Shown here in pieces: positions 1,990 through 60,795 of a stretch of 63,009 nucleotides of DNA. Position 1 is the stretch's first letter; every line of letters begins with the position of its first letter. The notes under the pieces are model-generated. The model worked only from the letters and a program-made list of their open reading frames with translations. It had not been told where the DNA came from and searched no databases. The position numbers were made by a program, and so were the translations under genes. The DNA is from Rhynchobatus australiae (taxonomy: Eukaryota), in NCBI GenBank assembly GCA_034780895.1, contig JAUZTB010000042.1, forward strand, positions 34,990,119 to 35,053,127. The letters run 5' to 3'.

Positions 1990-2268
1990 AGCCTGACAAA
2001 ATACAACATATCCGATGTCGACCCCAGAGCTCCACTGCAGTCTCCTGTTCCTGGACACACCCTGACTCAGACTACAATGGCTATGATGTTGAATGCTACC
2101 ACTATGACAAGAAGGAATTGGTATACTCGAGAAGAATCGAAAAGGGATTAGTTCAATACATCATTAAGGATCTAGAGCCAGACAAAAAATATCTAGTGGC
2201 TATAAAGGTCATCTCAGATAAAATGACCAGTGATGCTGTTGAGGACAGTGTTATTACCATGATTGACA
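1990..2268 (+). CDS. PTPRB: PTPRB/VE-PTP internal exon, fibronectin type III repeat
   Basis: ttgcag|AG CCT GAC AAA...ATT GAC A|gtaagt; 279 nt, phase 1-1. Translates PDKIQHIRCRPQSSTAVSCSWTHPDSDYNGYDVEC...VEDSVITMID, matching human PTPRB KPDKIQNLHCRPQNSTAIACSW...VEDSTITMID. Confidence 0.95.
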
Positions 2269-3288
2269 GTAAGTATTCACAGTCAAATTTTTAAAGACTT
2301 TTGTAAAAGTTATTGTCTGAAATTTTCTAAATTGGAAGCCAGTTTAATGACATAGTAGATTAGAAGCACCCTGTTAGAACAAAGTGGGTGAAATTTATCC
2401 TGGTCACCAATACTAAACAGGCATAACAGTATTAGTTGAAATAATAGTCGCTCCCTGGAATTTAGATCCACTGAACCAATTGTTGGAGAGCAAAGTTAAT
2501 TTAATCTTTTGTAGCAACAGAACAGAATTTCCATAACCATTCATTTCATCTTTCACAGAATCCACATGTGACAGCAGGATGACCTGAAATGTACGCAGCA
2601 AAGGCTAATTAGTGAACAGAAGAAACTNNNNNNNNNNCAATTTCTTTGCTGTTCTTGTCTGGAACTTTGGTAGTTCCCAGTATCAGAATCCCGCGAGACC
2701 TGCCCCAAGTATAAGCAGCTTTGGCTCCCAAACCTTTCATTGTCTGCTCTGTTTGTGTTACGGGGTCCCATGCTTCACTTTATTGCTTCGTTCCCTTCAA
2801 CAAAATAATTGCAGTCCTGAAAATTAATTGCCTCCTCCAGGCACTTTGCTGTTTTGCTTTTCTCAACACTAGGTTTGCCAACCANNNNNNNNNNNNNNNN
2901 NNNNNNNNNNNNNNNNNNNNNNNNNNNNNNNNNTCATTACAGTTGACCTGGTACATTGTAGTTATTGTGGTACCTAACAGTGTAATTGAGTTTTGTTAAA
3001 AACGAAACACACATACACGTTATGCCTTTCCTCAGGGACACATCTCAATTGATTCCAATTTAAACTATAAACAACAATCTATTCACTATTTCTTGTGGGA
3101 GGTTAAACAGAGGTGCTTTTTAATCTTAATCTTTTCTTTGTCGTATCTCACTCCAAGGTATTTAATCTCTGTAATAATGTTATCAGAAAATCATAACAAA
3201 TTAGTTTGGTGTAAGACATCATTAGTTTTACACCTTATGTAGATAAAGCTCACAACAAAAAAGTTAACCATGTATATTTTCCCCTCAG

Positions 3289-6064: not shown

Positions 6065-6245
6065 TTACAGCGTGGTGACAGGCCCTTCCGGCCCAACGTG
6101 TCCACGCCGCTCATTTTTTAACCCCCAAATTAACCTACCCGTATGTCTTTAGAATGTGGAAGGAAACTGGAGCACCCAGAGGAAACCCAAGCAGACACGG
6201 GAGAACATACAAACTCCTTACAGACAGCGACGGGAATCGAACCCT
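6065..6245 (-). mobile_element. V-SINE fragment
   Basis: Reverse V-domain ggaaactggagcacccagaggaaaccca...caaactccttacagacagcg, plus B-box gggaatcgaaccc. Confidence 0.75.
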
Positions 6246-6735
6246 GATTTTTATTGATGGCTGGCTTTTAATTGATGATTCCACAAAATACTTTTCTGTT
6301 TTTGTATAATTTAATTTTGTAGTTCTTCTTCATATTCTTAATTTTTTTTTAACTTCTCTCCTAATCTCTTTGTATTCTCTCTTGTGCGCCGATGTTGCCT
6401 ATACATAATGCAACTTTCCCTTACTCTCAATTGTTCCTTTCTAATCTTTATCCATATACGGATGCTCATGAGTGTTTAGTTTGTTCTTTCCTTTGTGGAA
6501 TATACATTTCCTTCACTCTGTAGATCACCATTTTAAGTTGTTATTCTACATTGTTGCCTGTATACAAAATTCAAATCTGCCCACAGTAAATGAGGTCAGA
6601 CATGCAAGCCACATTTGGATCCACAAAAGATATTACTGCTTCATACTGTGTTTTCATCGGGGACATATTCATAATGGTGTAATTGCTTTGTACAAGAGTG
6701 AGCAATATATTTTATTTCAATATTTCTGTTTTAAG

Positions 6736-7574: not shown

Positions 7575-9120
7575 AACTAACACTGTGACTTTATTTAAGA
7601 AGGGCAGCAAGGATAAGCTGGTGAGCCTTGCATCAGTGGTGGGAAAGTTGTTGGAACGAATTCTGAGAGACGGGATTTATTTGCATTTGGAAAGGCAAGG
7701 TCTGATTAAGGATAGATAGCATGGCTTTGTGCATGGGGAATCATGTCTCACAAGTTTTGTTTGAAGAGGGGAGTGCGAGAATTGGCGAGGCCAAGGTGGT
7801 GAACGTTGCCTTCATGGACCTTAGCACTGCCTTTGACAAGGTCCACATGGTAGGCTACTACAGAAAATTAGAACACGTGGGATCCTGGATGGAATAGCCA
7901 ATTGGATACAAGGTTGGCTTGATGGTCAAAGGCAAGGGGCAGTAGTGAAGGTTTGTTTTCAAATTGGAGGCCTGTGACCAGTGATGTGCTGCAGAGATCG
8001 GTGCTGTGTCCTCTGTTGTTTGTCATCTATATTCATCATTTGGTTGAGAGCATCAGTGGCATGATAAGTATGTTTGCAGATGACNNNNNNNNNNNNNNNN
8101 NNNNNNNNNNNNNNNNNNNNNNNNNNNNNNNNNNNNNNNNNNNNNNNNNNNNNNNNNNNNNNNNNNNNNNNNNNNNNNNNNNNNAGCATCAGTGGCATGA
8201 TAAGTATGTTTGCAGATGACATCAAATTTTGTGGTACAGTGGACAGTGAAGAAGGTTGTCTAAGGTAACAATAGGGTACAGAACAAGTGGGGAAAGTGGG
8301 CAAGGGAGTGGCTGATGAAATTTAACTCTGACAAGTGCGAAGTGATGCATTTTGGTTAGTTAAATCAGGTCAGGACATACATCGTGAATGACAGAACGGT
8401 GGGGAGTGTTGTAGAACAGCCAGACTTGTGTTGCATGTATGTAGCTCCCTGAAAATGGGAAAACCAGTTGCTAGGGTGGTGAGGAAGTTGTATGCCATGT
8501 TTGCCTTCATCAGCTGAGACATTGAGTATAAGAGTTTTGAATCACATTACAGTTGCATAAAATGTTAGTTGACCACACTTGGAGTATTGTGTGCAGGTCC
8601 GGTCACCACACTATAGGATGAAAATGATTAAGCTAGAAAGGGTGCAGAAAAGATTCACGAGAATGTTGCCTAGATTGGAGGGCTTAAGTTATTGAGAGAG
8701 ATTGGATAGATTTAGTCTGTCTTATCCAAAGTGAAGGAGGCTGAGAGGTGACATGATAGAGGTACATAAAATTATGAGAGGCATAGATAGGGTGGATAGC
8801 CAATGTCTGTTTCCCGTGGTATGGATGTCCTAAACGAGGGCGTAGGCTTAAGGAGAGAGGGAGGAAGCTTAAAGGGCATCTGATGGGTAAATCTTTCTCA
8901 CAAAGAGTAGTTGGTATCTGGAATGAGCTGCCAGAGAAGGTGGCAGAGCTAGGAACAGTGACGACATTTAAGCAACATCTGGACATGTACTTGAATGTGC
9001 AGGGCATAGACGAATATGGAATTAATGCAGGCAAGTGGGTTTAGTATAGGTGGGCACGGTGATCGGCGTAGACATGGTTGGCCTGTTTCTATGCTGTACA
9101 ACACTATGATTCTATGGTTT
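7575..9120 (+). mobile_element. 5'-truncated CR1 LINE (RT and 3' UTR)
   Basis: Decayed QHGFV...AFDKV...WRPVTSDVLQRSVLCPLLFVIYI...ISMFADDIKFCGTVDSEEG..., ending ggcctgtttctatgctgtacaacactatgattctatg. Confidence 0.9.
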
Positions 9121-10429: not shown

Positions 10430-10580
10430 TGAAAATCAAAAAACTGCCGATGCAGAAATCGGAAAAAGAAACAGAAAAAGCTGGAAATACTCAGCAGGAC
10501 TTCAACCTGAAGCATTATCGGTTTTTCTTACCACAGATGTTGCCTGACTTGCTAAGTATTTTCTGTTTTTATTTCTTGAT
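10430..10580. mobile_element. Collapsed palindromic Penelope-derived element
   Basis: gctggaaatactcagcagg ... cagatgttgcctgacttgctaagtattttc: inverted arms with a central deletion. Confidence 0.6.
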
Positions 10581-10759
10581 TCTACAACCAGATTTCATGC
10601 TTCCTTGGCGTGGTAAAGTTGAGCAGCTGATCCCATATGAAGTTTGAAATTGGCCCGCAGTATTGCATTTCCCACACAGAAGCATGCACTAAAACAGGCC
10701 TTTGTGGTTCCTGATGGAGGTGCATAAAGAGTTTGTAGCTACAGTGTCATTGCCAGGAT

Positions 10760-10900
10760 AAAAACAAGAAATGCTGGAAACACTCAGAAGATCAGGCAGC
10801 ATCTGTTGGGAGAGAAACAGTTAATGTTTCAGGTCCAGAACTCTTGATCAGGCTCCAGCATTTTCTATTTTCATTTCAGGTTTCCAGTATCTGCATTTTT
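10760..10900. mobile_element. Palindromic Penelope-derived element with degenerate hammerhead on the minus strand
   Basis: atgctggaaacactcagaagatcaggcagcatctg...tccagcattttc. Minus strand reads CTGATCA-AGAGTTCTGGACCT-GAAACATTAACTG. Confidence 0.65.
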
Positions 10901-17487: not shown

Positions 17488-18815
17488 GAACATAGAACAG
17501 GCCCTTTAGCCCACAATGTTGTGCCAACGTAGCTATTCCCTCCTACCTACAGAATTCCCATATCCCTCTATCATGTGCCCATCCAAGCCCCTCTTAAAAG
17601 CCCCCAATGAATTTGCCTCCACCACCCTATCAGGCAACACATTCCANNNNNNNNNNNNNNNNNNNNNNNNNNNNNNNNNNNNNNNNNNNNNNNNNNNNNN
17701 NNNNNNNNNNNNNNNNNNNNNNNNNNNNNNNNNNNNNNNNNNNNNNGATTATGCCGGCTGCTTCACCAAGGCAGCGAGAGGTAAAGACAGAGTCCATGGA
17801 GGGGAGGCTGGTGTCCGTGATGCACTGGGCTGTGTCCACAACTCTCTGCAGTTTCTTACGGAAACAGGCCCTTTGGCCCAACTCATCCATGCTGACCCAG
17901 TGGTGTATGTGAGCTCGTCCCATTTGCCTCTAAACCTTTCCTATCCACGTACCTGTCCAAGTGTCTCTTAAATGTTGTTGTTGTACCCACCTCTACCACT
18001 TCCTCTGGCAGCTCGTTCCATTCACCCACTGCCCTCTGTGTGAAAAACTTGCCCCTCAGGTCCCTTTTAAATCTTTCCCCTCTCACCTTAAATCTATGCC
18101 CTCTAGTTCTGGACTCCCCTACCCTGGGGAAAAGACCATGACCATCTGTGGCCCTCATGATATTATAAACATCTGTAAAGTCACCCCTCAGCCTTCTACA
18201 CTCCAGGGAAAACAGTATGTGGGAGAGAGCGACAGGAAGTGTGTGAGAGGTCGAGAGAGTGTGAGGGAAAGAGTGCGAGAGAGAGAGAGTGAGGGAGGAG
18301 GTGAGTGTGGGATGGAGCTCTGATCTCAGTGCTCTAACCTTTCACTTGCCAGGGGCAGGTGTTGCTTGTGTGAGCCGTGGAAGAGGATTCAATGGAAATT
18401 TCAAAGTGGAAACAGAACATAGAACAGTACAGCACAGAACAGGCCCTTCGGCCCACAATGTTGTACTGACATAGCTATTCCCTCCTACCTACAGAATGCC
18501 AATATCCCTCCATTTTCCTCTCATTCATGTGCCCATCCAAGCCCCTCTTAAAAACCTCCCATTGAACTTGCCTCCACCACCCTATCAGGCAACACATTCC
18601 AGGCAGCCACCACTCTCTCAGTAAAAAACATACCCCTCACGTCTGTTCTGAACCTACCCCCTCTCACCTTAAGTGCATGCCCTCTGGTATTGCATCACTC
18701 GATAATGGGGAAAAGATATTGCTTGTCCACCCTATCCCCCTCATACACTTCCCACAGATCACCCCTCAGCCTCCACTGCTCCAGAGAAAAGAGCCCAAGT
18801 TTGTCCAGCCTCTCC
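17488..18815 (-). mobile_element. Cluster of CR1 3' ends with a Rex1/Babar fragment (17747-17860) and a GA-rich tract
   Basis: ORF 17883-18158 (-) LFPRVGESRTRGHRFKVRGERFKRDLRGKFFTQRAVGEWNELPEEVVE is the CR1 ORF2 C-terminus. RKKLQRVVDTAQCITDTSLPSMDS is Rex1-like. Repeated agaacaggcccttcggcccaca tails. Confidence 0.85.
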
Positions 18816-19307
18816 TGGGCTCTTTACTCTGGAGCAGAGCTTGAGGGTAAAATGTCCTCCGAAAAATGATAGAAACAGTAAAAAAAAATCTCCACAGATT
18901 TACTGTGTAACAGCAGTGCCCAGGAACCAGCTCAGAACTGCTCCTGCTCCATTTCCTGTTACAATTCAAGCTGTCAGACAGAGCAGAAAAGCTCCAATCA
19001 GAAAAAAAGGTGCATAGTCCAAGGCAATGCAAGGAGCATTGCAGAAGCAAAAGAATGGAATTATAAACACCAACCAGGAATCCATTGGAGTACAATTAAA
19101 CTTGCAATTTAATTACTAACAGTAAATACAACCCTCTTATTGCTGAAACAGTTGAATATTTAAGAAACAAGGACACAAACTGTAATGTTAAGTTGGAGAG
19201 GCTTTTAAATAACAAAATCTATGAATGAATTTGCAACATTTACTGATGTTAATGTCTCAATGCCAGCCTGTAAACATAACTCAGTGCTGCCTCTGTTTTT
19301 CTTTCAG

Positions 19308-22379: not shown

Positions 22380-25300
22380 GATAGAATTAATTAAAAACCT
22401 AATCTCGAAGGCACCCCTAGGTAACAGAGATCATGTAGTATTGAACATTCCATTTCAGGTTGAGAAAGAGAAGAATGGGCCCAAGGTTGATACTTTAAAC
22501 TTAAGGACAACTATGAGGGCATGGAACCAGACCTAGCTAAAATGAACTGGCAAATAAGGTTACAGGGACAGCCAAGATGTGGCGGCAGACATTTTAAGGG
22601 GGCTCTTTCAGACTACACAAAATAGATACATTCCAACAAGAAAGAAAAGTTCCAAGGGGAGGACCAAAAAAAGTTAATGATACTACCCAAACTTAAAGAA
22701 AATGCATAATATTTGTACAGAGACAGATGCCAGGGGAGATGAGTGGACAGAATGTTTAAAAGAAACAAATGAGGAATCAAAAGTTAGAGTAGATAAAGTT
22801 AGCATCAAATAAAAACAAACAGTAAGAATTTCTATGTTAATTTCATTGTAAAAAATAATGGAAAACATTAAATAGGTATTTTGCCAGTCCTCACTATAAG
22901 GAAACAAGTAATATCAGAAATAGCTGTAAATCAAGAATTGAAAAGGGGAGGGGGAAGCTCAGGAAAATTATAGATCACCAGGGCTGAGCAAATTATGGAG
23001 CTCTGGGCTCACTTGTCTCCANNNNNNNNNNNNNNNNNNNNNNNNNNNNNNNNNNNNNNNNNNNNNNNNNNNNNNNNNNNNNNNNNNNNNNNNNNNNNNN
23101 NNNNNNNNNNNNNNNNNNNNNGGCTCACTTGTCTCCAAGTCCTGTCATCCAAAAGGTCTTAAAAGAAGTGGCTAGCAAGATAATTGATGCATTTATTTTT
23201 AAATTTTCCAAAATTCCCTAGATTTGGGAAGATATTCCATTAGATCTGAAAATAACAAATGTACCCCCTCATTCAAAAGAAACGGGAGGAAGACAGAAAG
23301 CAAGAAACCATAGGCTGATTAGCTAAACCTGTATCATAGGGAAAATGTTAGAAGTTATTATTAAAGATGTCATAGGGTGCTTTGGAAGATTCAAGCAAGT
23401 TAAATACTATTTTGTGAATATGAAATCATGTCTGAACAATTTATTGGAATTCTTTGAAGTAATGTGTGTTGTGAATAAAGTGGAACTGATGGATGTGCTG
23501 TACATAGATATCCAAAAGCCATTAGATAAAACGCCACATCAAAGCTTATTACAGAAAATAAAAGCTGATGTTTTAGGAAATAACATATTTTCATGGAATG
23601 AAGAGAGGCTGGCTAACAGGCAGAGAGTAGACATAAGTACCGGTTGGCAAAGTGTAGTGTGTGATATACCACAGGACTCAGTGCTAGGGTCACAACTTGT
23701 TACAATTTATGTAAATGGTGCAAGTGATGACATGAAGAGTATAATGCTAAGTTTGCTGATGATGTGGAGTTAAGTAAGAAAGTGAAATGCGAAAAGAACA
23801 AAGAGGCTACAAAAAGGATATTGATGGCTTGAGCGAGCAGGCAAAGATATGTCAAATAGAGTATAATGTGGGGAAAGTGTGAACTTATCCAGTTCAGCAG
23901 GAAAAGCAAAGAACCATAAAAGAACCTCCTATATTGACAGTTTGCATGAGAACATAGATGGCATGGTTAGTAAGTTTGCAGATGACAAAATTGGTGGTAT
24001 AGTGGACAGTGAAGAAGGTTGTCGAAGGTTACAACAGGATCCAGTTCAACTGGGAAAGTGGGCCAAGGAATGGCAGAGAGAATTTAACATGGACAAGTGG
24101 GAAGTTCTTCATTTTGGGAAATTAAACCAGGGCAGGACTTGCACAGTAAATGGCAGGGCCCTGGAGAGTGTTATAGAACAGAGAGATCTAGAAGTGCAAG
24201 TACATAGTTCCCTGAAAGTGGCAACACAGGTAGACAAGGTGGTGAGGAAGGTATTTGGCACACTTGCCTTCATCGGTATGGGCACTGAGCATAAGAGTTG
24301 GGACATCATGTTACAGCTGTGCAAGACATTGGTGAGACCACACTTGGAGTATTATGTGCTGTTCTGCTTGCCTAGCTATAGGAAGGATGTCATTAAGCCA
24401 GAAAAGATGTGCAAAGATGTGGTGAAGACTGCAGAGATTGGATCGGCTGGGGCTTTTTTTACCCAGGAGTGTAGGAGGCTGAGAATTGACCTTATTGAGG
24501 TACATTAAAACCTCGAGGGACATAGATAAGGTAAATGGTCACAGTCTTTTCCCAGTGTAAGGGGGGGGGGGGGTCTAAAACTATAGGGCATAGATTTCAA
24601 GTGAGAAGAAAAAGATTTAAAGGGGACCTTGGGGGCAACTTTTTCCCCCACACAGAGGGTGGTGGGTGTATTGAATGAACTGCTAGAGGAAGTGGTAGAG
24701 ATGGGTACAATTACAATGCTTAAAAGACATTTAGACAGGTACACAGATAGGAAAAAGTAAAGGGATATGGGCCAAATGTAGGCAAATGGGACTAGCTCAG
24801 GTAAGCAAATTGGCTGACATGGACATGTTGGGCCAAAGGGCCTGTTTCTGTGCTGTATAACTCCATGACTGTTATCTAAACGTGGAGAGATGCAGAATTC
24901 AATGCAGAGGGATATAGGTGTCATATACAAGGATTCACAGAAGGGTAATATTGCAGGTAGGGCAAGTAATATGGTAAATTAGTAGAATGTTATCCTTTGT
25001 TGTTAGGGGAATTAAATATAAAAAGTGGAGGGTTGCGGTTATGCTTCAGTTATATACAGCATTTGTGAGACCTCATCAGAAGTACAGCATACAACATATC
25101 AGTGCTTCTTTAAGGAAGGATGTTAAAGTACAAGAAACAATTCAGAGGAAGTTTGGTTGACTAATACCAGGAAATGGGTGGGTTGTCGTGAGGAAATTTG
25201 GGTAGGCTTGGCTTGTATCCACTGGAATTTAGAAGAGCAAGACAGAACTTTATTTAAATAATCTTTAAAGGTCTTTCCCCTTCTGAGAGAGTCTCAAACA

Positions 25301-27029: not shown

Positions 27030-27325
27030 ATTAGTCCATTCTGCCCATCGAATCTATACCAGTTATCAAATCAATCCCATAAGTTCCATTGTCCCACTTT
27101 TCTCACATGCCCATCAACTGACCACCCACTACACCGGGTAATTTACAGTGGCCAATTAACTCACCATTTTTGGGATGTGGGAGGAAACCAGAGCACCAGA
27201 AGGAAACTAATTTATTCATAGGAAAAACGTACAAACTCCACACAGGCAGTACCCAAAATCAGGATCAAACCAAGATTGCTGGAGTTATAAGGAGCAGCAG
27301 CACTTCTCAGCTCTCTATTGTGCTG
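27030..27325 (-). mobile_element. V-SINE
   Basis: gggatgtgggaggaaaccagagcaccagaaggaaac...caaactccacacaggcag is the reverse V-domain. Confidence 0.7.
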
Positions 27326-29344: not shown

Positions 29345-29875
29345 ATGAAAAACACTATAACATGCTGGAGGAACTCAGCAGGCCAGGCAGCATCCGTGGA
29401 TAAAAGCTGGCAGTCAACGTTTCAGGTCTGGACCCTTCTTCAGGGCTGAAGATCAGAAAAGGGGAACCCCAATAGATAGGAGGGAAAAGCAGAGCAGTGA
29501 TAGGTGGACAAAAGAGCAGAGGTGGGGTGGGCACAAGGTGGTCATAGGTAGATGCAGGTAAGAGATAGTGATAGGCAGGTACGGGGGAGGAGGGGAGAGC
29601 AGATCCACTGGGNNNNNNNNNNNNNNNNNNNNNNNNNNNNNNNNNNNNNNNNNNNNNNNNNNNNNNNNNNNNNNNNNNNNNNNNNNNNNNNNNNNNNNNN
29701 NNNNNNNNNNNNNNNNNAGGGTAGTAGAAAAAAAAAGACAGGCTGGGAAAGGGAAGAAAAAAGGTATGATGGGGGGTGGAGAAGGGGGGGGGGTGGGGAT
29801 TACCTAAAGTGGGAGAATTTAATGTTCATGCCGTTAGGCTGCAAGGTTCTAAGACGGAAAATGAGGTGCTGTTCA
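29345..29875 (-). mobile_element. Penelope-like element 3' end (pLTR) with minimal hammerhead ribozyme
   Basis: Minus strand encodes the GIY-YIG C-terminal EQHLIFRLRTLQPNGMNIKF, followed by a pyrimidine tract, the hammerhead at 29411-29448 and gatgctgcctggcctgctgagttcctccagca. Confidence 0.8.
29411..29448 (-). ncRNA. Minimal type-I hammerhead ribozyme motif
   Basis: Minus strand: CAGCC CUGAAGA A GGGUC CA GACCU GAAA CGU U GACUG. Stem I CAGCC/GACUG (one mismatch), intact core, stem II, palindromic ACGU stem III, GUU cleavage triplet. Confidence 0.7.
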
Positions 29876-30287: not shown

Positions 30288-30520
30288 AACTTCTACACTC
30301 AGAGGGTGGTGCGAGTGTGGAACGAGCTTCCAGCAGAAGCGGTAGATGTGGGTTCAATTGTAACATTTAAGAGAAGTTTGGAATAGGTACATGGATGGGA
30401 GGGGTTTGGAGGGATATGCGCTGGTGCAGGTAGATGGGACTGGGCAGAAGATCAGGTCAGCATGGACTTGATGGGCTGAAGGGCCTGTTTCTGTGTTGTA
30501 GTACTCTATGACTCTATAAT
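30288..30520 (+). mobile_element. CR1 3' end
   Basis: actcagagggtggtgcgagtgtggaacgagcttccag...gggctgaagggcctgtttctgtgttgtagtactctatgactcta. Confidence 0.85.
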
Positions 30521-32199: not shown

Positions 32200-32600
32200 G
32201 CAGCACAGTAGCATAGCAGTTAGTGTGACGCTGTTACAGTGCCAACAATTGGGGTTCAATTCCCATCGTTGTCTGTAAGGAGTTTGTACATTCTCCCTGT
32301 GACTGCATGGGTTTCCTCCGGGTGCTCTGGTTTCCTCCCACATTCTAAAATCGTACGGGTCGGTTAACNNNNNNNNNNNNNNNNNNNNNNNNNNNNNNNN
32401 NNNNNNNNNNNNNNNNNNNNNNNNNNNNNNNNNNNNNNNNNNNNNNNNNNNNNNNNNNNNNNNNNNNNNNNNNNNNNNNNNNNNNNNNNNNNNNNNNNNN
32501 NNNNNNNNNNNNNNNNNNNNNNNNNNNNNNNNNNNNNNNNNNNNNNNNNNNNNNNNNNNNNNNNNNNNNNNNNNCATGCTGTATAAATAAAGTTTAAGGT
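32200..32600 (+). mobile_element. V-SINE (gap inside)
   Basis: gcagcacagtagcatagcagttag (A-box), ggggttcaattccc (B-box), V-domain gggtttcctccgggtgctctggtttcctcccacat. Confidence 0.8.
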
Positions 32601-41710: not shown

Positions 41711-42106
41711 TTTACATATTTACAAAGTACAGACTTTTTAAAAAGTTAGCAATAGTAAAGATTGTGGGAGCATTCACAAAATGGGGTTGCAGTAAACTAA
41801 CAATATATTCTGGGGAAACAGGATAATTGCAGGGAAAATAAACTGAAAAGGAAACAGTTAAAATCTATTAGACCTGCTGCTTTCATTTGTAATAATGCAG
41901 TGGAATCTTTAGGCCAAATTGCAAGCATTTATTTTCATCAATTCTTTAGTCTTCCAAGCAGCTCAAATCACAGTAAACTTTGTAAATTGTTGCTTGAGAT
42001 TAAAATCATTTCAGGTCTTTCTCATTAAAGATTTGCCTTTGAATGCAACGTTGATCATGTCACCACTGGAATGCTGCCTGATGGTCACTTCTCAGCGGTC
42101 TTCCCA

Positions 42107-42275
42107 CTAGGAGTACTTCATTTTCTGCAAGGCTTCTGCTCGAATAGCTAGACTCTTACCACAGACAGTCAGAAGCACAATCAGAACACCCACCAGCAGA
42201 GTCAGGAGGGGCCAGAGCACGCAGTGCAACAGAACGTTTTCGTCACGGGTCCTCTTCAAAAGCACATCATCAGGT
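42107..42275 (-). CDS. KCNMB4: KCNMB4 exon 3, TM2 and stop
   Basis: ttttacag|A CCT GAT GAT...TAC TCC TAG; 169 nt. [55 protein letters not shown]. Total CDS 633 nt = 210 aa, as in human. Confidence 0.96.
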
Positions 42276-42399
42276 CTGTAAAATGTCCCAAAGCTTTAAT
42301 GAACAACACACTTTGTTGAAGAAAGAATAAGCAAATTAAGGCTTCAATACTTTAGTGGGGGCAAATTGTTGCACACTTGATAGATTGGTTGTATATTTA

Positions 42400-42806
42400 A
42401 AGATAAAATAACATAAGATAATTATTTATTAGTCACATGTACATCAAAACACAAATGAAATATGTCTTTTTACGTTGCTAAGAATGTGCTGGGGGCAGCC
42501 CACAAGTGTCGCCAATCTTCCAGTGCCGACATAGCATGCCCACAGCTCCTAATCTGTACACCTTTGGAATGTGGGAGGAAACCGGAGCACCCGTAGAAAA
42601 CCCATGCAGACACAGGGAGGATGTACAAACTCCTTAGAGGCAGCAGCGGGAATTGAACCNNNNNNNNNNNNNNNNNNNNNNNNNNNNNNNNNNNNNNNNN
42701 NNNNNNNNNNNNNNNNNNNNNNNNNNNNNNNNNNNNNNNNNNNNNNNNNNNNNNNNNNNCGCTGGCGCTGTAATAGCATTAAGCTAACCGCTATGCTAAC
42801 GTGCCA
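42400..42806 (-). mobile_element. V-SINE with Rex1-like tail, ~125 nt from the KCNMB4 exon 3 acceptor
   Basis: Reverse V-domain, and tttattagtcacatgtacatc, the reverse complement of gatgtacatgtgactaataaa. Confidence 0.8.
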
Positions 42807-42909: not shown

Positions 42910-43200
42910 GAGACACAAGAGACTGCGGATGCTGGAACCTGGAGCAAAAAACAAACTGCTGGAGGAACTCAGCGGGGCAGGCAGCATTTAAGGAGGCACA
43001 GGGATGGTCAACATTTTGGGTTGAGATCCTGCACCAGCAAATGAGAGTGTCGTGGGAAGATAGCCAGTATAAAGAGGCGAGAGGTAGGAGCGAGACAGGG
43101 ACTGGTAGGTGATAGGTGGAACCAGGTGAAGTGGAGGATAATGGGCAGATGGTGGGAGGAGAAAGGGAAGGTTAGGGCAAGGGAGAAGAAGCCTGGAGGG
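42910..43200 (-). mobile_element. Penelope-like pLTR fragment with degenerate hammerhead
   Basis: gactgcggatgctggaacctggagcaa...gctggaggaactcagcggggcaggcagcat...ggtcaacattttgggttgagatcctgcaccag, followed by a purine-rich tract. Confidence 0.7.
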
Positions 43201-43499
43201 ATACTCATGTGGGTGGTAGGCAGATGGAACCTCCATAATGGCTCATTGCCTGGTCAGGGCTGTGGTCTCTGCAGAGTTTCTGTAATAACCAATCCCTGCA
43301 GCTGATGCCAGTTAAGGTGTCATCACAGGTAGAGTGGCAGCCTGTAGAAACAGTGCAAGGAAGGTATTCCAGTTGGGATTCCATCTCTTCTGTTAATTCA
43401 GTAACAATTCCATTCAATTACTCTTAATTAAATACAAGTGATAGGTTCCTAATGAAGCACAGCAAGATCTTTGCAAATTACTTTAGCAGCACAACCCTG

Positions 43500-43920
43500 T
43501 GGCTGCTGGAAATCCATAATAAAAATATAATCTGCTCTACACATGAATGTGTGGCCAGATACAGCACCAAGTCGATCTTTAAGTTTGCCTGACATCAGTG
43601 TTATTGGCCAGATCAACATCAATGATGAGACGGAGGACAGGCAAGAGATTGTGAATCTTATGTCATGGTTCCAGCCCTTGATGTCAGCAAGAGAGCAAAA
43701 GAAAGAGCTGGTCATTGACCCAAGGAAGTGGGTGGGGTTAGTGAATACAACCCTGTCCTTATTAACAGCTGCTGTAGAGGTGGTCGACACCTTTCTGTTG
43801 TTTTGTGCTTGTCACTGTATTTATAGTTGTATTTATTATTACTTGTTTACTCTGTGAGCTTCATGTGAGCAAAAAATTTCATTGCACCCTGGTGTATATG
43901 ACAATAAATTAATCTAAATC
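43500..43920 (+). mobile_element. Rex1/Babar RT fragment and tail
   Basis: Degenerate KF-D-ISVIGQININDETEDRQEIVNLMSW...KKELVIDPRK; tail tttcattgcaccctggtgtatatgacaataaa. Confidence 0.65.
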
Positions 43921-43929
43921 TGGATCAGA

Positions 43930-44100
43930 ATTTGAAATACTCAGCAAGTAAAGCAGCATTTATAGAGGCAGGGAAAGAGAGCAAAAGAGAGACAGATTCA
44001 GTTAAAGTTTCAGACTGATGATGAGATTAAAGACTACCAATCTGAAGCACTCTTTTTCCTCAGAAACTGGCTAAGCTGCTGGATGTTTCAGTATTTATAT
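43930..44100. mobile_element. Decayed palindromic Penelope-derived element
   Basis: gaaatactcagcaagtaaagcagcat ... ctgatga ... gctgctggatgtttcagtattt: inverted arms. Confidence 0.5.
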
Positions 44101-44657
44101 ATTTAATTTCCTGTAAAGCATTAATCATTGAGCATAGAGGGGTAAATGTGTTCATTGTTTAACTGCAAGCTATTTTCTCAAAATAATATGATTAAGGACC
44201 AGAGTTTTTTTTTAAGCAACCTTTGAGCACCAGGTTTGTCAAACTGTTTGCAGATATTGCAATCAGGTTGACTTTTCCACATTAAAACAAAGATCAATTA
44301 TGAATCCATCCACATAATCCTGAATAACCAACTGAGGAAAAAATGTCCCCATTTAACTGGTGATTTGTGTACCATCATTTTCATTACAAATTACAGCAAG
44401 GATTATAAAAAAGAGCTGCAGGTTTTTATTAAAGATTTTTTGCCAAAATTCCAGATAGATGCAGTGGGTTTATTATATTATTTTTGTACAACATCAAAAC
44501 AGTCGGTGGCCATTTTCATTTCCTCCACTCATGGAAATCAGACTATATCAGAATGAGAAGTGTAAATTATTTTTTCTGCTTGAATATTATTTTAACTGCA
44601 GGCACAGATGTAATCTTGATAAACCTTTATTCACTTGAAAGGTTTATTCATGTATAA

Positions 44658-44810
44658 AGGCAGCACGGTAGTGCAGTGGTTAGCATAATTCCCGCTGCTG
44701 TCTGTAAGGAGTTTGTACGTTCTCCCCTGACTACATGGGTTTCCTCTGCGTGCTTTGGCTTCCTCCCACATTCTAAAGATGTACGGATTAGTAGGTTAAC
44801 ATGGGTTAAC
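44658..44810 (+). mobile_element. V-SINE, truncated
   Basis: ggcagcacggtagtgcagtggttagc followed by the V-domain. Confidence 0.75.
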
Positions 44811-45404
44811 CTATTATACACATCTTTTCATAAAGATCAGGTTAATTATAAAGTTATTAGATAATGACATCTTTCTCCATTTAAGCACTTCTTAAAACCT
44901 TTTAGACTAATCTTTTCTAGCATTTATCCTTATATCTTACACAGCTTGCTGTCAAATTTGTTTGATATTGGTCAGAAAGCACCTTTGGGCATTTTACTTC
45001 ACTGAAAACTTCCATATAAATCTAAGCTGTTGCTTTGGATAGGTTTTCATTTTTTGCCACTTGGATGTTAAGCACCATCTCAGTATGCATGAACTCAGTA
45101 TAAAAAATCCAACTAAGGATTATACAGCCCTTACAGACCAGTAAATTTTGTTTTTTACACTTCAATGAAAGGAAAACAAAAAGTGGACTTGGTTACTGAT
45201 TTGTGAGCTGCTATACAAGATTTTCTGTTGTGATTCACTAGCTGATATTGAACAGGCATGCAGTAGAGACGAAAATCATTTCTATTGTATTTAAATGTTC
45301 ATATCGAAAAAATGTTAGAAATCACATTCAATTATTGTGCTGTAATCTAGGTTCAAGTCACATTATATATTCAATAAAAATTAATACATATTTTGTATAA
45401 AAAT

Positions 45405-45640
45405 GAAGTAAAAGCAGAAAAGGCTGAAATATTCAGAAGGTCAAGCACAAACACGGAGATGGAAAGAGAGTTAATGTTTCAGGTTGAAGACCATTTGTGG
45501 AACAATGGTTCTGATGATAGGTCTTTGACCTGAAATGTTTACTCTTGTTTCTTTCTCCACAGATGCTGCCCAACCTGCTGAATGCTTCCAGCATTTTCGG
45601 TTTTTAATTCAGATTGCCAGCATCTGCAGTTTTTTGATTT
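45405..45640. mobile_element. Palindromic Penelope-derived element with hammerhead motif
   Basis: Inverted arms. The plus arm (45507-45545) reads GGTT CTGATGA T AGGTC TTT GACCT GAAA TGT T TACTC. Confidence 0.75.
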
Positions 45641-45703
45641 TCCTCTATGCAAAATTGTTTCCTGTAGATGTGCTCAGTGATTTTTTTTAAAATGTCATCT
45701 TAC

Positions 45704-50189: not shown

Positions 50190-50460
50190 AGTCATAGAGT
50201 CGACTCAGAAACCAACTCATCATTCATTCGTCCATCCCGACCAGCAAGCATCCACTTACATTAATCCTACACCAATCCCATTTCATTCTTCCCACATTCC
50301 CATCCACTCTTCCCAAATTCTACCGCTCACCTACACATTAAGCACAGTGGCCAATTAACCTACCAACCCAGACATCTTTTGGAATGAGCAGGAACCCGGA
50401 ACACTTGAAGTAAACCTATGCAGTCACAAGGAGAATGTGCAAACTCCACGCAGACAGGAT
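50190..50460 (-). mobile_element. V-SINE
   Basis: cagtggccaattaacctaccaaccc...gcagtcacaaggagaatgtgcaaactccac. Confidence 0.7.
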
Positions 50461-50651: not shown

Positions 50652-50950
50652 GGGCAGGCATGGTAGTGTAGCAGTTAGCATAATGTTATTACAGTGCCAG
50701 CAACCCGGGTTCTATTCTGGCCGCTGTCTGTAAGGAGTTTGTACGTTCTCTCTGTGTCTGCATGGGTTTCCTCTGGGTACTTCGGTTTCCTCCCACATTC
50801 CAAAGACATACGGATTAGGAAGTTGTGGGCATGCTATGTTGGTGCCAGAATCATGGCGACACTTGCGGGCTGCCCCCAGAACACCTTGCAAAAGATGCAT
50901 TTCACTGTGTGTTTCAATGTACATGTGACTAATAAAGAGATCTTATCTTA
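50652..50950 (+). mobile_element. Full-length V-SINE with Rex1-like tail
   Basis: A-box tggtagtgtagcagttagc, B-box gggttctattc, V-domain, tail gcatttcactgtgtgtttcaatgtacatgtgactaataaagagatcttatctta. Confidence 0.85.
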
Positions 50951-51479
50951 TCATTTGTTATCTCAAACAGTGACTACTCACAGCTGAAGGCCAGGAACAG
51001 AGTAAACGGAGAACACTTACTACAAAGGCAGAAAGAACACCCACGTGATCCTGATGTAGACTTAGTTTTTCCATATCTAGCCAATCTTGACAACTGACAG
51101 ACCTGACTCATACTAAATTATGGGCTCATAAATAGTTTGACCATCTATTAGCCAGGACTTCAGACAAAGTACATCTAAACTGACTCAATACAAAACCTTT
51201 AAAGCTATAGGAGCTGAGATTTTCTTGCATTGGATTGAAGTCAGATTCAATCCAGGTGAGTGCAAAAGCTTATAAGTAGTCAGGAAAGAGGGAATCTGTC
51301 AAATCAACATGTGCGATATACTTTGAGCTGCAGGTAAGTTAAGATGAACAAGGCTGTTCACCGGGCGAATATCTTACATTGCCTTCACAAAAAGAACCAA
51401 AGTTTCACTTACTAAAGCATTGATAAAATACTGTAAAAAACATCCTGGGGTGAAAATACCAGACACCAAACAATGAAAA

Positions 51480-52054: not shown

Positions 52055-52705
52055 TTTAGAGGCTGCAGAGGGTTGTAGAATCAGCCAGCTCCATCATGGG
52101 TACGACCTTCTTGACCACTGAGAACATCTTCAAGGGGTAGTGCCTCAAGAAGGCAGGATCCAACATTAAGGACTCTCAACATCCGGGACATGCCCTCTTC
52201 TCTTTACTATAATTTGGGAGGAGGTACAGAAGGCTGATCCACACTCAATGATTCAGGAACAGGTTCTTCCCCTCCGCCATCAGATTTCTGAATGATCCAT
52301 GAACACTACGCCATTATTCAGCTTATCTCAGTTTATTACATCTTCCCCCCTTCCCCCAGCTACCTACCTTCCCCCTCACCTATCACCTGCCTGTGTGAGC
52401 TCCTCCCCCTCCCCTCTTATTCTGGCTTCTGCCCGCCTCCTTTCCAGTCCTGAAGAGTCTTGGCCCGAAATGTCAACTGTTTATTTCCCTCCATGGATGC
52501 TGCCTGACCTGCTGAGTTCCTCCAGCACTTTATGTGTATTGTTCCAGATTCCAGCATCTGCAGAGTTTCTTACATCTCATTATTCCTTTTTTTAAACACT
52601 ATTTATTTCTGTAATTCAAAGATTTTTATGTCCTTGCACTGTACTGCCACAAAACAACAAATTTCACGTCCTATGTCAGTGATAATAAATCTAATTCTGA
52701 TAGCT
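52055..52705 (+). mobile_element. Rex1/Babar 3' end interrupted by a Penelope pLTR (52320-52570)
   Basis: gctgcagagggttgtag...cttcccctccgccatcagatttctgaatg (Rex1), then a pyrimidine tract with CAGTC CTGAAGA GTCTTGGCCC GAAA TGTC AACTG and gatgctgcctgacctgctgagttcctccagca, then the Rex1 tail ...gtcagtgataataaatctaattctga. Confidence 0.75.
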
Positions 52706-53094
52706 GAAGCCCAGAATAGCTCAGGTCTTGCCAATGGCAATGTGGGAGAAAAAGGTGCAACCATTCCTTGGCAGAGGTGGAAGTGCATCCAGACTAGAGC
52801 AGAGCCCTAAATGTAGAGAATACACTGGTGGAGGAGAATCCAGTGTTAAACATCTTGAGGAAAGCAAGGAGGAAGGTCAGGAGCAGTTGTATATGATAAA
52901 AGCAGTCACAAAATATGTTGATGGTTTTGGTTCCTGGGCAGTCCTACTGATGTAGCTAGACAGAGTAATCAAGAGGATTCAAAGATTAAATGAAAGAGGA
53001 GTGAACGAGGTCAATGTTATTTGGATAGAAGAGAAGATTGAATACAGGTTGTAGGTTGGAGGAGCGATTTTTTTATGAGAAGGACATATCTCGA

Positions 53095-54050
53095 TGAAAA
53101 ACACTATGATGCTGGAGGAACTCAACATGTCGGGCAGCATCCGTGGAGAAAAGCAGGTGGTCAATGTTTTGGGTCAGGACCCTTCTTCAGGAATGAAGAT
53201 AGGAAAAGGAGAAGCCCAATTATGGGATGGAAAAGTCATAGGTGGACCAAAGAGAGGAGGTAGGCCGGGCACAGGGTGGTGATAGGTAGATGCAGGCAAG
53301 AGATAGTGATAGGCAGGTGCAGAGGAGGAGGGGAGAGCAGATCCACCGGGGGATGGGTCAAAGGTAAGGAGGAAAAAAAAGGGTAGAAACAGAGGCCAGA
53401 AAAGGGAAGAAAAGAAGAGGCATGGTTNNNNNNNNNNNNNNNNNNNNNNNNNNNNNNNNNNNNNNNNNNNNNNNNNNNNNNNNNNNNNNNNNNNNNNNNN
53501 NNNNNNNNNNNNNNNNNNNNNNNNNNNGGCATGGTTGTGGGGTGGGGGGGGAATGGAGGGGGAGCTGCTGAGGAGAATACTTAAAGTGGAAAAATATGAT
53601 CATGCCATTAGGCTGCAAGGTTCCAAGATGGAAAATGAGGTGCTGTTCCTCCAGTTTGTGCTTGGACGTCTCCTGGCAGTAGAGGAGGCCGAGGACTGAC
53701 ATATCTGTGATGGAGTGGGAGAGGGAGCTGAAATGCCTGGCAACGGGGAGATGCAGATTGCAGTTGCAGATGGAGCGTAGGTGTTATGAGAAATGGTCAT
53801 CTAGTCTGCGTTTGCTCTCGCCAATGTAGAGGAGGCCACACTTGGTGCACTGAATGCAGTAGATGGAGGGAGGTGCAGGTAAGTCTCTGTCTCACCTGAA
53901 AGGACTGTTTGGGTCCCTGGATGGAGATGATGTAGGAGCAGGTGGTGTAGGAGCAGATGGTGCACCTATGGCAGGAGCAGTGGAAAATTCCTGGGGTGGG
54001 AGCAGGATGTCCATCAGAATCTTGGGATGCGCCCCTGATGTCAGAGTGCA
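53095..54050 (-). mobile_element. Penelope-like element fragment: GIY-YIG endonuclease plus pLTR with hammerhead remnant
   Basis: Frameshifted PGIFHCSCHRCTIC...IQGPKQSFQVRQRLTCTS...YCIQCTKCGLLYIGESKRRLDDHF...MSVLGLLYCQETSKHKLEEQHLIFHLGTLQPNGM. Hammerhead remnant CTGAAGA A GGGTC CT GACCC AAAA CATT GACC at ~53159-53194. Confidence 0.88.
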
Positions 54051-55180
54051 TAAGGTTGTGTAAGGATAATGTGATCTGATGAAAAAAAAACTGATTGGTA
54101 AAAACACTTCATTACATTTCTACAGTTTTTACATGGATTGGGATCAATTCTTTCGCCCTGCATACCAATGAGTAAAAATAAAATTTAATAGTTTAATGTT
54201 TAACAGATATTGAATAGTTTAGCCATCAGTTAAGCAAAGGAGAATGGTTTATGTTTTCCCAACATGGCATTTGCCAGTCCAGTCCTACGATGGGATTTTC
54301 ATCCAGAAGGCTAAGGATTGGGGTGGCTTCCCAAGAAAGTTCTCATAGGCATATCTGCTCAAGTGCAAACTTAAGCAGTCGATGTGTGTAATAACAGCAC
54401 TGCCAGGAGACTTGTGTCCATTATAGTTGTAGGATTTGCTTGCTCTATTATTTGGAAAAAAATCCCCTATGTGTGACATTATGTCTTCCACAGAAGATTA
54501 TATGGATTTACTGCAGACAAGATACTGTTCCTAATACAGTCCACTCACTGGAGACAGATTATCAATGCTATACACAGTTTGGTTGTCATATTTCCTGTAT
54601 TGCACATGTGGCTTCACTTCATCAAGTATTTCATAGACTGAAGGAATATTTAGAGTCTATGACGGGAAATGTGTAGATTAAATCTTTCTAGCCTTGGTTA
54701 AATCTCTACCCATGCTGTTCTATTCTTATTCCCTTTACTTACTTACAAGTATCTTGTGCAGAACTTTAAAAGCCCGTTCAAAATCTGCTCCATTTCCTTT
54801 CTCAGTGCATTTAATATGATCTCAAGGCACTCTAGGTAACTCAGAAGGAAGATGCATCATTTGATGAACTTTTTATTATGGGCCCCAGTTCTGCATAATT
54901 GACCAACATTGATATCTACCAGCAGAAAATGAAACAAGAAGTTGATTCATGACTATACAATTTCTATAGGTATACCTAAATTTCCTGGTAGAATCCATCT
55001 ATAATTTTAATGTATACTTTGTCCTTTCTTCTCAAGGAAACTTAATTAGTGGAATAATAATTAACAACTAACTTCTTTAATTTTCATGAACATTTGAGCT
55101 ACAGTAATGGAATGGGATGTGCTATTATTAGAGCTTCCCTGGTTTATGCCAACAGTTTGGTCAAGAGCTCGGGGTCAAGA

Positions 55181-55441
55181 GGGGCAGGCACAGTAGTGTA
55201 GCGGCTAGCATAACACTATTACAGTGCCAGCAACCCGGGTTCAATTCCAGCCACTGTCTGTAAGGAGTTTGTACGTTCTCCCCATGACTGCATGGGTTTC
55301 CTCCAGGTGCTTGTGTTTCCTCCCACATTCCAAAGATGTACGGGTTAGGAAGTAGTGGGCATGGTACCTCAGCGCCGGAAGCGTGGCGACACTTGTGGGC
55401 TGCCCCCAGAACATTCTAGGCAAAGATGCATTTCTTATCTT
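55181..55441 (+). mobile_element. V-SINE, same subfamily as 50652-50950, tail partly deleted
   Basis: A and B boxes, V-domain, gcgacacttgtgggctgcccccagaaca segment. Confidence 0.85.
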
Positions 55442-58255: not shown

Positions 58256-58530
58256 GGGCACATATCTGTATTGCAGTTTTCCCCGGTAAGGTAACTGCTG
58301 CAGTTTGTAGTTACAGATTGATTAATTTCAATTAAGTTTTCGAGGATTTATTTTTAAAAAGCCTAAAGCTTACTGTGTTATAAGTGCAAGAAATGTATTT
58401 AAAGGTAAAAAAATAACACTTAGCGCAACTTACCGACTACTTGGATAAATGTGTTTAAATGCATTATCAAGGGCGATATTCTAAGCTCATTTCACAGCTT
58501 TTTCTATGTCACGGCAACAAGACACTTTAC

Positions 58531-58866
58531 CTTGGGATTCAAAAGGAGTTGTTGTTCGTCGTAATGAAGCAGCGCTCTGCTGTTTGATTGGGAATTGTTG
58601 ACGAAGATCTGGAGACAAGGATAGAGCGACGTCCCTTTGCAATCTGCCCCACATGTAAAAGTGCACTCAGACATCTCCCCGATCTGCCGCAACGACACAA
58701 CGGTGCAGTTTGCAGCCTTGCACTGCATGTTGTTCAGNNNNNNNNNNNNNNNNNNNNNNNNNNNNNNNNNNNNNNNNNNNNNNNNNNNNNNNNNNNNNNN
58801 NNNNNNNNNNNNNNNNNNNNNNNNNNNNNNNNNNNNNNNNNNNNAAGCGACTCTGACCTTCGCCAT
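58531..58866 (-). CDS. KCNMB4: KCNMB4 coding exon 1 (BK channel beta-4); TM1 masked by 107 N
   Basis: ATG at 58866; MAKVRVA-[36 X][69 protein letters not shown]|gtaaag; 336 nt, colinear with human residues 1-112. Confidence 0.95.
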
Positions 58867-59310: not shown

Positions 59311-60453
59311 ACAACGTACTGGAAGGCTAAGATTGACCGTCTAACTTAAATGCATTGCTGCGGCGAAGAGTTCTTAAGATGGTTATAGGCGCAATTTACA
59401 GTTTAAAATCCCACAATTCTTCTTTGAAGCTGGATTCTGGCACTTGAACAATTCAGGGAATTCCATCTCCCTAAGGACTTCAGCTCGGGCAAGTGATTTT
59501 CCAACAATACCAGGTGCCTCAACAAAACCACATTTTAACATCCATTCATTCCACCCCGAATTCAAGTCCCACTGTCCACTACGTTGAAACGCTCGGCTCA
59601 TTAAATGCCAAAGAAAGGCATCAAATTTACATATTATTTCATTCGAATCACTTTGCCAAGAAGTAATTGGACAATATAATGTTAATGATGCATTCATCTG
59701 TATATTTTTAAACTAAAAATAAGGATCATGCTTAGTTTTAAATAAGTATGTCAAATTTCCTGAACGAGAGGTGTCACTCCAAAAGGAGAGTCTGGAGCAG
59801 GGCGATTTGCAAAGTTATGTACTGCCACCGGAAATTTCTGAAAAATAAAACTGTGGGTGCTGGAAATCTGAAATGAAAACAGGAAATGCTGGAAATACTC
59901 GGGTCAGGCAGCATGTGTGGAAAGAGAAACAATTAGCGTTTCAGGTCCGGGACCCTTCCCTTGAACCGTTCTAACCAAGGGGTTCGGACCTAACCGTTAA
60001 CTATTTCTCTTTCCACAGATGCTGCCTAACGGGAATTTTCTGGTCACGTTTGACTTTCTTTCTCCCTCCCTCCTACGAGAGTACAGCGAAGTCGAGGCAG
60101 TAACTGTATCTTTATTTTATGAATGGGAGATTATTGTGAAGCGACCCGGGGTCAGAGAGCACCGAGAAGCAACCAATGCCAGATCCTCTGCCGGTTAGTG
60201 TTAACCTGCAGCTACCAACTTTCCACAACGTGAGCCCGTCCCATTTACATCGTTGTCAAAGAACAAGGCTCACTCATTTATTATTCACGTCCCAAAATAC
60301 AGAATTCCCTGGATTGTTCAAATGACAGTTTAATCTAGCTGCAAAGAATAATTGTGGGACGTTAAACTATAAATTGTACCCATAACCATTTTAAGGACTC
60401 TTCGCCGCAGCAATTAAGTTCAGTCAATCAATCTTGGCCTTCCAATACGTTGT
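59311..60453. repeat. ~150-bp inverted repeat pair (59311-59463 and 60302-60453)
   Basis: acaacgtactggaaggctaagattga...tgctgcggcgaagagttcttaagatggttat...tcccacaatt...cagggaattc is matched in reverse complement by 60302-60453. Confidence 0.9.
59845..60040. mobile_element. Palindromic Penelope-derived element
   Basis: ggcagcatgtgtggaaagagaaac...cgtttcaggtccgggaccct | aggggttcggacctaaccgttaactatttctctttccacagatgctgcc. Confidence 0.75.
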
Positions 60454-60611
60454 CTTGCAAGCTTTAAATGTTGCCAGGTCAGAGTGCTTTACCCTAAATG
60501 TCTTTGCCCTAAACGATAAATTACATCGTTAGATTTAGTCACTTAAATCAATGAACTGTAGAAAACTTTTTTTTAAGTTTCCAAAGCAGAGAGGGGAGTG
60601 CCGTTTAAGAA

Positions 60612-60795
60612 TTGAAAATACTCAGCAGACCCGGCAGCGTCTGTGGAGAGAGAAACAGAGTTAGCGTTTGGAGTCAGTGCCCCTTTCGTCAGATCCTCCT
60701 GAGGAAAGATCACGGACCTGAAACAACGAGAGGTGCTGTCGGAGTTGCCGAGTATTTCCAGCATTGTTTTAATTTCAGGTGTCCGGCGGCTGTAG
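60612..60795. mobile_element. Palindromic Penelope-derived element with hammerhead cores on both strands
   Basis: Minus arm CTGACGA AAGGGGCACTGACTC CAAACGC; plus arm CTGAGGA AAGATCACGGACCT GAAAC (60699-60724). Confidence 0.75.

Follow-up and report, generated by a model that had tools for sequence, protein, structure and literature searches.

The 63-kb window analysed here is a 63,009-nucleotide stretch of vertebrate DNA from the genome of Rhynchobatus australiae. Of seven open reading frame (ORF) pieces, one was named confidently by Pfam, and a PDB search with the ORF at 43531-43857 returned no match. The minus strand carries a KCNMB4-like exon at 58528-58737 (E 1.5e-30); a fibronectin III exon, which may belong to a receptor phosphatase such as PTPRB, lies within 1920-2294 (+). 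Besides the Penelope-type sequences that are the subject of this work, the window holds a second dispersed repeat family of SINE-like size, with copies that are 75-88% identical (6124-6252, 27145-27250, 32203-32368, 42401-42659, 44687-44800, 50241-50457, 50652-50963 and 55182-55434). Decayed LINE-like reverse-transcriptase fragments, which we take to be CR1-like, are found at 8027-9019, 17858-18212, 23327-24870 and 30288-30513. A small hairpin with 22-nt arms of 95% complementarity (18776-18837) is located within a repeat and gave a weak, below-threshold match to mir-26 in an Rfam scan.

Six loci in the window are each composed of two opposed arms that resemble a Penelope terminus and are arranged head-to-head (6/6). 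So as to avoid circularity, these were sought with a hidden Markov model (HMM) trained on four long Penelope termini only, with all palindrome arms excluded. With this model, 11 of the 12 arms are recovered (E<=0.021) and the reversed window yields no match at E<=5; the twelfth arm, 44034-44110, is recovered by an HMM built from the arms themselves (E 1.4e-5). The palindromes are a real feature, and both the six short elements with inverted Penelope-like arms proposed in a preliminary description of this DNA and their link to Penelope are borne out by these searches. Arm-to-arm complementarity exceeds that of all 1000 shuffles for 45402-45642, 59841-60028 and 60612-60795, and is marginal for the remaining three copies (matched by 19, 40 and 50 of 1000 shuffles). 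Whole insertions span 140-240 bp and contain neither an ORF nor a second direct pLTR. A very decayed arm-like stretch is also seen at 42045-42100 (+; E 0.4-0.8), and 42232-42280 (-) contains a strict hammerhead-core match at 42273 that is not accompanied by a convincing stem II. When prokaryotic genomes were searched for copies that had strayed there, 11 loci came up, all confined to 19-30 nt around the seed and regarded as chance matches.

The focal palindrome, 45402-45642 (+), carries its tail on the right and folds as one long hairpin (-92 kcal/mol, z -7.5, computed as RNA). Its left part, 45402-45503 (-), is an inverted, tail-less arm with a decayed hammerhead that keeps two of six CUGANGA positions and all four of GAAA. 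A 4-nt spacer at 45504-45507 (no strand assigned) forms the junction between two stem I 5' strands, at a C3-to-C3 distance of 10 nt. To its right is a minimal type I hammerhead (45508-45543, +) with its core at 45511-45517, GAAA at 45532-45535 and a stem II in which 45519-45523 pair with 45527-45531. The preliminary description had singled out this arm, from 45511, as the best motif with a perfect stem II, and both the position and the 5-bp stem are confirmed. The predicted cut falls 3' of 45539, and the adjacent stem I pair is a U-U mismatch. Next comes the main part of the sense arm (45544-45610, +), which shares homology with Penelope termini, and a 32-nt tail present on the sense arm only completes the element (45611-45642, +). 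This tail agrees with the other tails at 16/19 positions, as against a non-significant 9/19 for the partner arm. The sense arm also contains two pyrimidine tracts ending in CAG that resemble splice acceptors, at 45545-45566 and 45595-45612 (+). An ATG follows the first tract. The second falls on the tail boundary and is seen again in two sister termini, at 52539-52548 (+) and in the one at 42916; in Drosophila Penelope, an intron ends at hammerhead stem I (PMC4209133).

The other five copies are preserved to varying degrees. The copy at 59841-60028 (-) has its tail on the left, 7 nt between cores and a right arm that is about 45 nt short, and it too folds as one long hairpin (z -6.9). At 60612-60795 (+), the tail is on the right, 6 nt separate the cores and about 18 nt have been lost from the right arm. 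The copy at 10431-10577 (-), with its tail on the left, is missing its centre along with the hammerhead core, and its junction coincides with a 5-nt word common to both arm positions in other copies. An asymmetric copy is found at 10757-10899 (+), where the left arm reaches the core and the right arm consists of the last ~50 nt plus the tail. The most decayed copy, 43932-44110 (no strand assigned), still has two detectable arms (E 3e-5 and 1.4e-5), but its centre is indistinct and no tail was detected in it by local or in-register tests.

Four longer Penelope termini in the window provide the context for these arms. The element at 53093-53990 (-), with an approximate 5' end, is 5'-truncated and without a tail, and contains a broken GIY-YIG endonuclease, a Cys-rich linker, a pyrimidine-rich UTR and a hammerhead. 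Its endonuclease has a CxxC motif and scores a Pfam E of 0.008, below the curated cut-off; three proteins match it at 63%, and a PDB search with this piece found no match. A second 5'-truncated element of the same subfamily, 29345-29875 (-), retains an intact core at 29443. Two further termini were absent from the preliminary description: 52344-52575 (+), with a UTR, a hammerhead remnant and a tail, and 42916-43200 (-), with a UTR, a decayed hammerhead and a tail. Locally, the arms are 76-78% identical to the long termini by BLAST. The earlier statement that the arms resemble the termini at 29345 and 53095 holds as far as homology is concerned; the arms are members of a sister subfamily rather than copies of those termini, as a tree of eight arms and the four long termini splits the two sets at 97/96 and leaves the arms as an unresolved star. 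Four of the twelve arms, lacking a core or aligning poorly, were omitted from this tree. The identity matrix has the long termini misaligned across the hammerhead and underestimates how similar they are to the arms; the division into subfamilies is therefore based on the re-aligned tree together with diagnostic positions, such as 45584-45586.

A CX2-5CxxC linker upstream of the GIY-YIG domain, a criterion of the Neptune/Nematis clade (PMC8557442), is found in the 53093 element only. The arm subfamily is probably of Neptune type as well, an assignment extended from the sister subfamily because only the latter has an ORF here. By the same route the palindromes would be assigned to the Penelope-like (EN+) elements, as their pLTRs are homologous to a terminus attached to a GIY-YIG (CCHH) endonuclease. 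The two subfamilies differ in form: every one of the six arm-subfamily loci is a short palindrome lacking an ORF, whereas no sister terminus out of four has an inverted partner (Fisher p 0.005, for loci that are not independent draws). The window contains no ORF-linked or unpaired member of the arm subfamily.

Penelope-type loci of both kinds appear clustered, at 10431-10899, 42916-45642, 52344-53990 and 59841-60795. Gaps of 1.5 kb or less account for 3/5 of those between palindromic copies (p 0.013) and 5/9 when the long termini are included (p 0.017), under a threshold picked post hoc. Such clustering could reflect local hopping, targeting near the element's own copies, or uneven survival. 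The palindromic copies at 59841 and 60612 are situated 1-2 kb 5' of the KCNMB4-like exon (58528-58737, -).

The junction between arms lies just 5' of stem I in three of the six copies, with 10, 7 and 6 nt between cores. Its position varies by no more than 4 nt among these three, and their centre sequences differ. In a fourth copy (10757-10899), one arm ends at this same junction and the other has no hammerhead; this copy and 10431-10577 are joined asymmetrically. The proposal of a recurring, short and ORF-less family with a preferred junction is supported. That the arms join just 5' of the core, and that each strand carries a hammerhead remnant, is true of those three copies; it does not extend to 10431-10577, which has lost its centre, or to 10757-10899, where it applies to one arm only, and no copy has two intact cores.

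A tail of 30-odd nt is present on one side in five of the six copies, with 12-16 in-register matches over 19 positions, as opposed to 6-9/19 for the four partner arms that reach the tail boundary. A looser local test detects four of the five tails at 1-2/1000 and misses the fifth (60612, 13/19). In the same test two partner zones are ambiguous: tail sequence may continue into the partner arm of 10431-10577 (34/47 columns, gapped), and the zone beyond the left arm of 60612 scores 15/1000. Two tail-less arms end 20-45 nt early, and the tail-less outer ends vary between copies. Measured from stem II, the two outer ends are about 92 and 123 nt away. The elements are therefore polar and not MITE-like, their ends being unequal.

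A probable 14-bp target-site duplication (TSD) flanks the copy at 59841-60028 (59827-59840 and 60029-60042, both +). Its two halves are identical at 12/14 positions, a similarity reached by 1 of 800 null comparisons, for ends that were set by eye after the repeat had been noticed. Neither this duplication nor the one-sided tail figured in the preliminary description. For the other five copies, the best flanking repeats are no better than chance (equalled by 112-449 of 800 null comparisons). A check of all six copies revealed no fixed short TSD, the 14-bp duplication at one of them being the sole candidate; old copies could have lost a 2-bp TSD. Around the terminus at 52.4 kb there is a 14-nt direct repeat identical at 13/14 positions (52330-52343 and 52564-52577), which may overlap the tail and so could instead be microhomology. 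Similar words of 13-14 nt occur near the ends of the 53-kb element (53088-53101 and about 54074-54086), and the left one may not be a TSD, as it is partly common to the 29345 terminus.

The majority consensus of eight arms is a complete minimal type I hammerhead, composed of the core, an extra base, a 5-bp stem II, GAAA, a two-base helix III, UH and a short stem I, a layout already described for such ribozymes (PMC4209133). The consensus thus has the CUGANGA, GAAA and UH elements and the stems on which the original ribozyme proposal depended. Individual copies are degenerate, as had been noted at the outset: the full core is kept in only one of ten scored arms, which is itself mismatched next to the cut, and on both strands in none of the six copies. 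Intact cores in both polarities are a property of the consensus, whose core stands on either strand by symmetry, and of no single copy. None of the nine matches at E<=10 in an Rfam scan of the window was a hammerhead, and the long termini were missed too. Over six arms, 75% of stem cells are paired compared with 72.9% after shuffling (148/500 as high); covariation among the same six arms is equalled by 113/500 shuffles, and slid controls are 12.5-54% paired. In the folding model, the stem II probability of the best arm alone is 0.86-0.93 and drops to 0.0 in the whole element, which suggests that pairing between the arms would remove stem II. For a single consensus arm the value is only ~0.05, and the model does not show a lone arm folding as a ribozyme. 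These copies are ribozyme fossils, without any indication here of a present-day function.

The homology, head-to-head layout, one-sided tail, single TSD, consensus hammerhead and decay are best explained if the loci are old, dead insertions of one Penelope-like subfamily, with the palindrome most likely formed at each insertion (a probability of roughly 0.55). Each insertion would have been reduced to an inverted pLTR without a tail followed by a pLTR with one. A dimeric reverse transcriptase-endonuclease would nick both DNA strands about 14 bp apart, and each nick would prime reverse transcription of the element RNA from either of two adjacent internal sites, of which one yields a tail and the other does not. 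Each cDNA would then be extended as far as an RNA 5' end located just upstream of stem I of the hammerhead, where the two would be joined; fold-back priming, in which one cDNA is folded back, would lead to the same product. The template RNA is expected to have been uncleaved, because sequence 5' of the cut site was copied, with the ribozyme travelling in the pLTR as a passenger. Nicking of both strands, a pair of internal start sites and an uncleaved substrate are taken by analogy from in vitro work on another clade (PMC11167929), to which we add the proposal of twin priming and of an RNA 5' end at the junction. In that work, the Poseidon enzyme of Anolis (PAc) nicks and extends both strands, copies uncleaved RNA and uses two reverse-transcription start sites that bracket the tail, 111-118 nt past stem II/ORF start (PMC11167929).

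Formation at insertion is favoured by the tail on one arm in 5/6 copies, as in inverted-pLTR insertions (PMC3846280, PMC8557442), and by the ~92/123 nt from stem II to the ends, which is close to the Anolis distance of 111-118 nt (PMC11167929). The 14-bp duplication at one copy, the centres of 10, 7 and 6 nt and the variable tail-less ends are likewise in keeping with it, as are the attachment of sister termini to a GIY-YIG endonuclease with a CxxC motif and Cys-rich linker and the previous report of close, opposite-strand minimal hammerhead pairs (PMC4209133). Against it, those published pairs lie 100-700 bp apart and so are wider (PMC4209133), a TSD is seen in only 1/6 copies, the partner arm of 10431-10577 may reach into the tail, and the zone left of 60612 scores 15/1000. 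Moreover, the 6/6 palindromes of the arm subfamily with no ORF-linked member are what a copied master would predict. PMC3846280 favours self-priming on an antisense template rather than twin priming. A quartet test on the six decayed copies found six sites grouping arms by copy, two to four by side and three in the third way, a split that fits either model.

An anatomy almost identical to that expected from formation at insertion would also result from master copying or from recombination between direct pLTRs. In the first of these, one or a few short palindromic loci would give rise to hairpin RNA, which a Penelope reverse transcriptase would copy in trans from the tail onwards, breaking off at the far arm. 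What is viable in the original idea is contained in this account, which is tentatively retained as a less probable one. All six subfamily loci are palindromic and ORF-less, the junction is constant within 4 nt in three copies with a fourth having one arm that ends there, and the one-sided tail, TSD and variable far end fit equally well; furthermore, pLTRs alone can mobilise sequence in trans (PMC3846280), and short non-autonomous Penelope elements are known in butterflies (PMC6685494). The centres, however, are unlike in length and sequence, neither tree nor quartets group left against right arms, and the RNA would be a ~100-bp duplex, presumably an unlikely template and a substrate for RNAi; inverted Penelope copies do give siRNAs (PMC3681739). 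That such a hairpin-RNA family of MITE size, with two outward hammerheads and abundant at six copies per 63 kb, itself transposed through a Neptune-type reverse transcriptase in trans in this vertebrate lineage is similarly a doubtful prospect. Rather unlikely, too, is that a parent of the form [inverted pLTR][pLTR]-ORF-[pLTR+tail] lost its ORF by recombination between the direct pLTRs, with TSD, tail and junction retained. Such a parent, whose inverted pLTR is shorter and lacks a tail and which comes with a TSD, has been described, and solo pLTRs have been ascribed to recombination or deletion (PMC3846280), but all six loci must then have recombined between repeats of ~130 bp, and the window contains no such parent.

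MITEs are short, non-coding elements with inverted arms, and the small size, inverted arms, lack of an ORF and several copies seen here agree with the preliminary description of the family as MITE-shaped. Derivation from a DNA transposon, with the arms as terminal inverted repeats, is nonetheless very improbable: the arms are retrotransposon termini, their far ends vary, the single TSD found measures 14 bp with none that is short and fixed, and the tail on one arm already contradicts it by making the ends unequal. The MITE label is withdrawn on these grounds of polar ends, retrotransposon-derived arms and target sites. The retrozyme-like label fares no better, and an ambisense, viroid-like retrozyme with both strands transcribed, self-cleaving and circularising is equally remote, even with a consensus core that is intact on either strand by symmetry and with retrozymes reported to be pLTR-derived (bioRxiv 10.64898/2026.07.22.740005). 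A retrozyme consists of head-to-tail repeats in which two or more ribozymes have the same sense (PMC7229834, bioRxiv 10.64898/2026.07.22.740005), and minimal hammerheads need a same-sense partner (PMC4209133). Here, each strand has one ribozyme beside its own antisense copy, so that a monomer cannot be cut out. None of 14 TRF rows is a tandem array of the arm, the nearest same-sense hammerhead pair (59971, 60699) belongs to two separate decayed copies, 0/6 copies have two intact cores, and stem II falls from 0.86-0.93 to 0.0 in the modelled whole element. The palindromes share with animal non-LTR retrozymes a short, non-coding form, a type I hammerhead and a relation to pLTRs, and differ from those that release circles in being dispersed head-to-head pairs (PMC7229834).

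The closest known relatives in structure are Pen2/Pen2a of Adineta vaga, in which pLTRs are joined head-to-head at their 5' ends and the inverted copy is shorter (PMC3846280). These conform to the general scheme for Penelope-like elements (PLEs), where a shorter, tail-less pLTR is inverted head-to-head, a tail stands at the far end and the TSD is long (PMC3846280, PMC8557442); TSDs of 8-10 bp have been reported for Penelope (PMC3846280). The one-end tail of 30-40 nt is common to the palindromes, Pen2/Pen2a and this scheme, and the probable 14-bp TSD at one palindrome would fit the long, variable TSD of the latter two (PMC3846280, PMC8557442). Unlike Pen2/Pen2a, the elements here total 140-240 bp and have no ORF and no second direct pLTR. 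Their hammerheads resemble those of metazoan PLEs in the minimal type I core, the extra unpaired base before stem II, the palindromic two-base helix III, the short stem I and the opposite-strand pairing (PMC4209133). They depart from these in the 6-10 nt between cores, compared with ~100-700 bp, and in a stem II that often opens with A-U or G-U rather than G-C (PMC4209133). As in Anolis PAc, the hammerhead is followed ~100 nt downstream by two end positions with the tail between them; the Anolis enzyme differs in being of the Poseidon clade, active and demonstrated in vitro, and no description of short palindromic products was found for it in the available portions of that report (PMC11167929).

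The components and the way they are arranged are already known, opposite-strand pairs of minimal hammerheads among them (PMC4209133), and the copies look like decayed Penelope leftovers rather than a new ribozyme-driven element. The short, ORF-less palindrome with a close junction was not found described as a family in the literature searched, which covered a minority of subscription papers, and the available portions of PMC5753468 and PMC8455134 contain nothing on a short palindromic form. The remaining surprise is why the arm subfamily occurs only as short palindromes. The origin of inverted Penelope ends has been named as an open task (PMC8557442). Abundant minimal insertions with a preferred, ribozyme-adjacent junction would map the template's 5' end, and would separate twin priming, fold-back priming and master copying by genome data alone.
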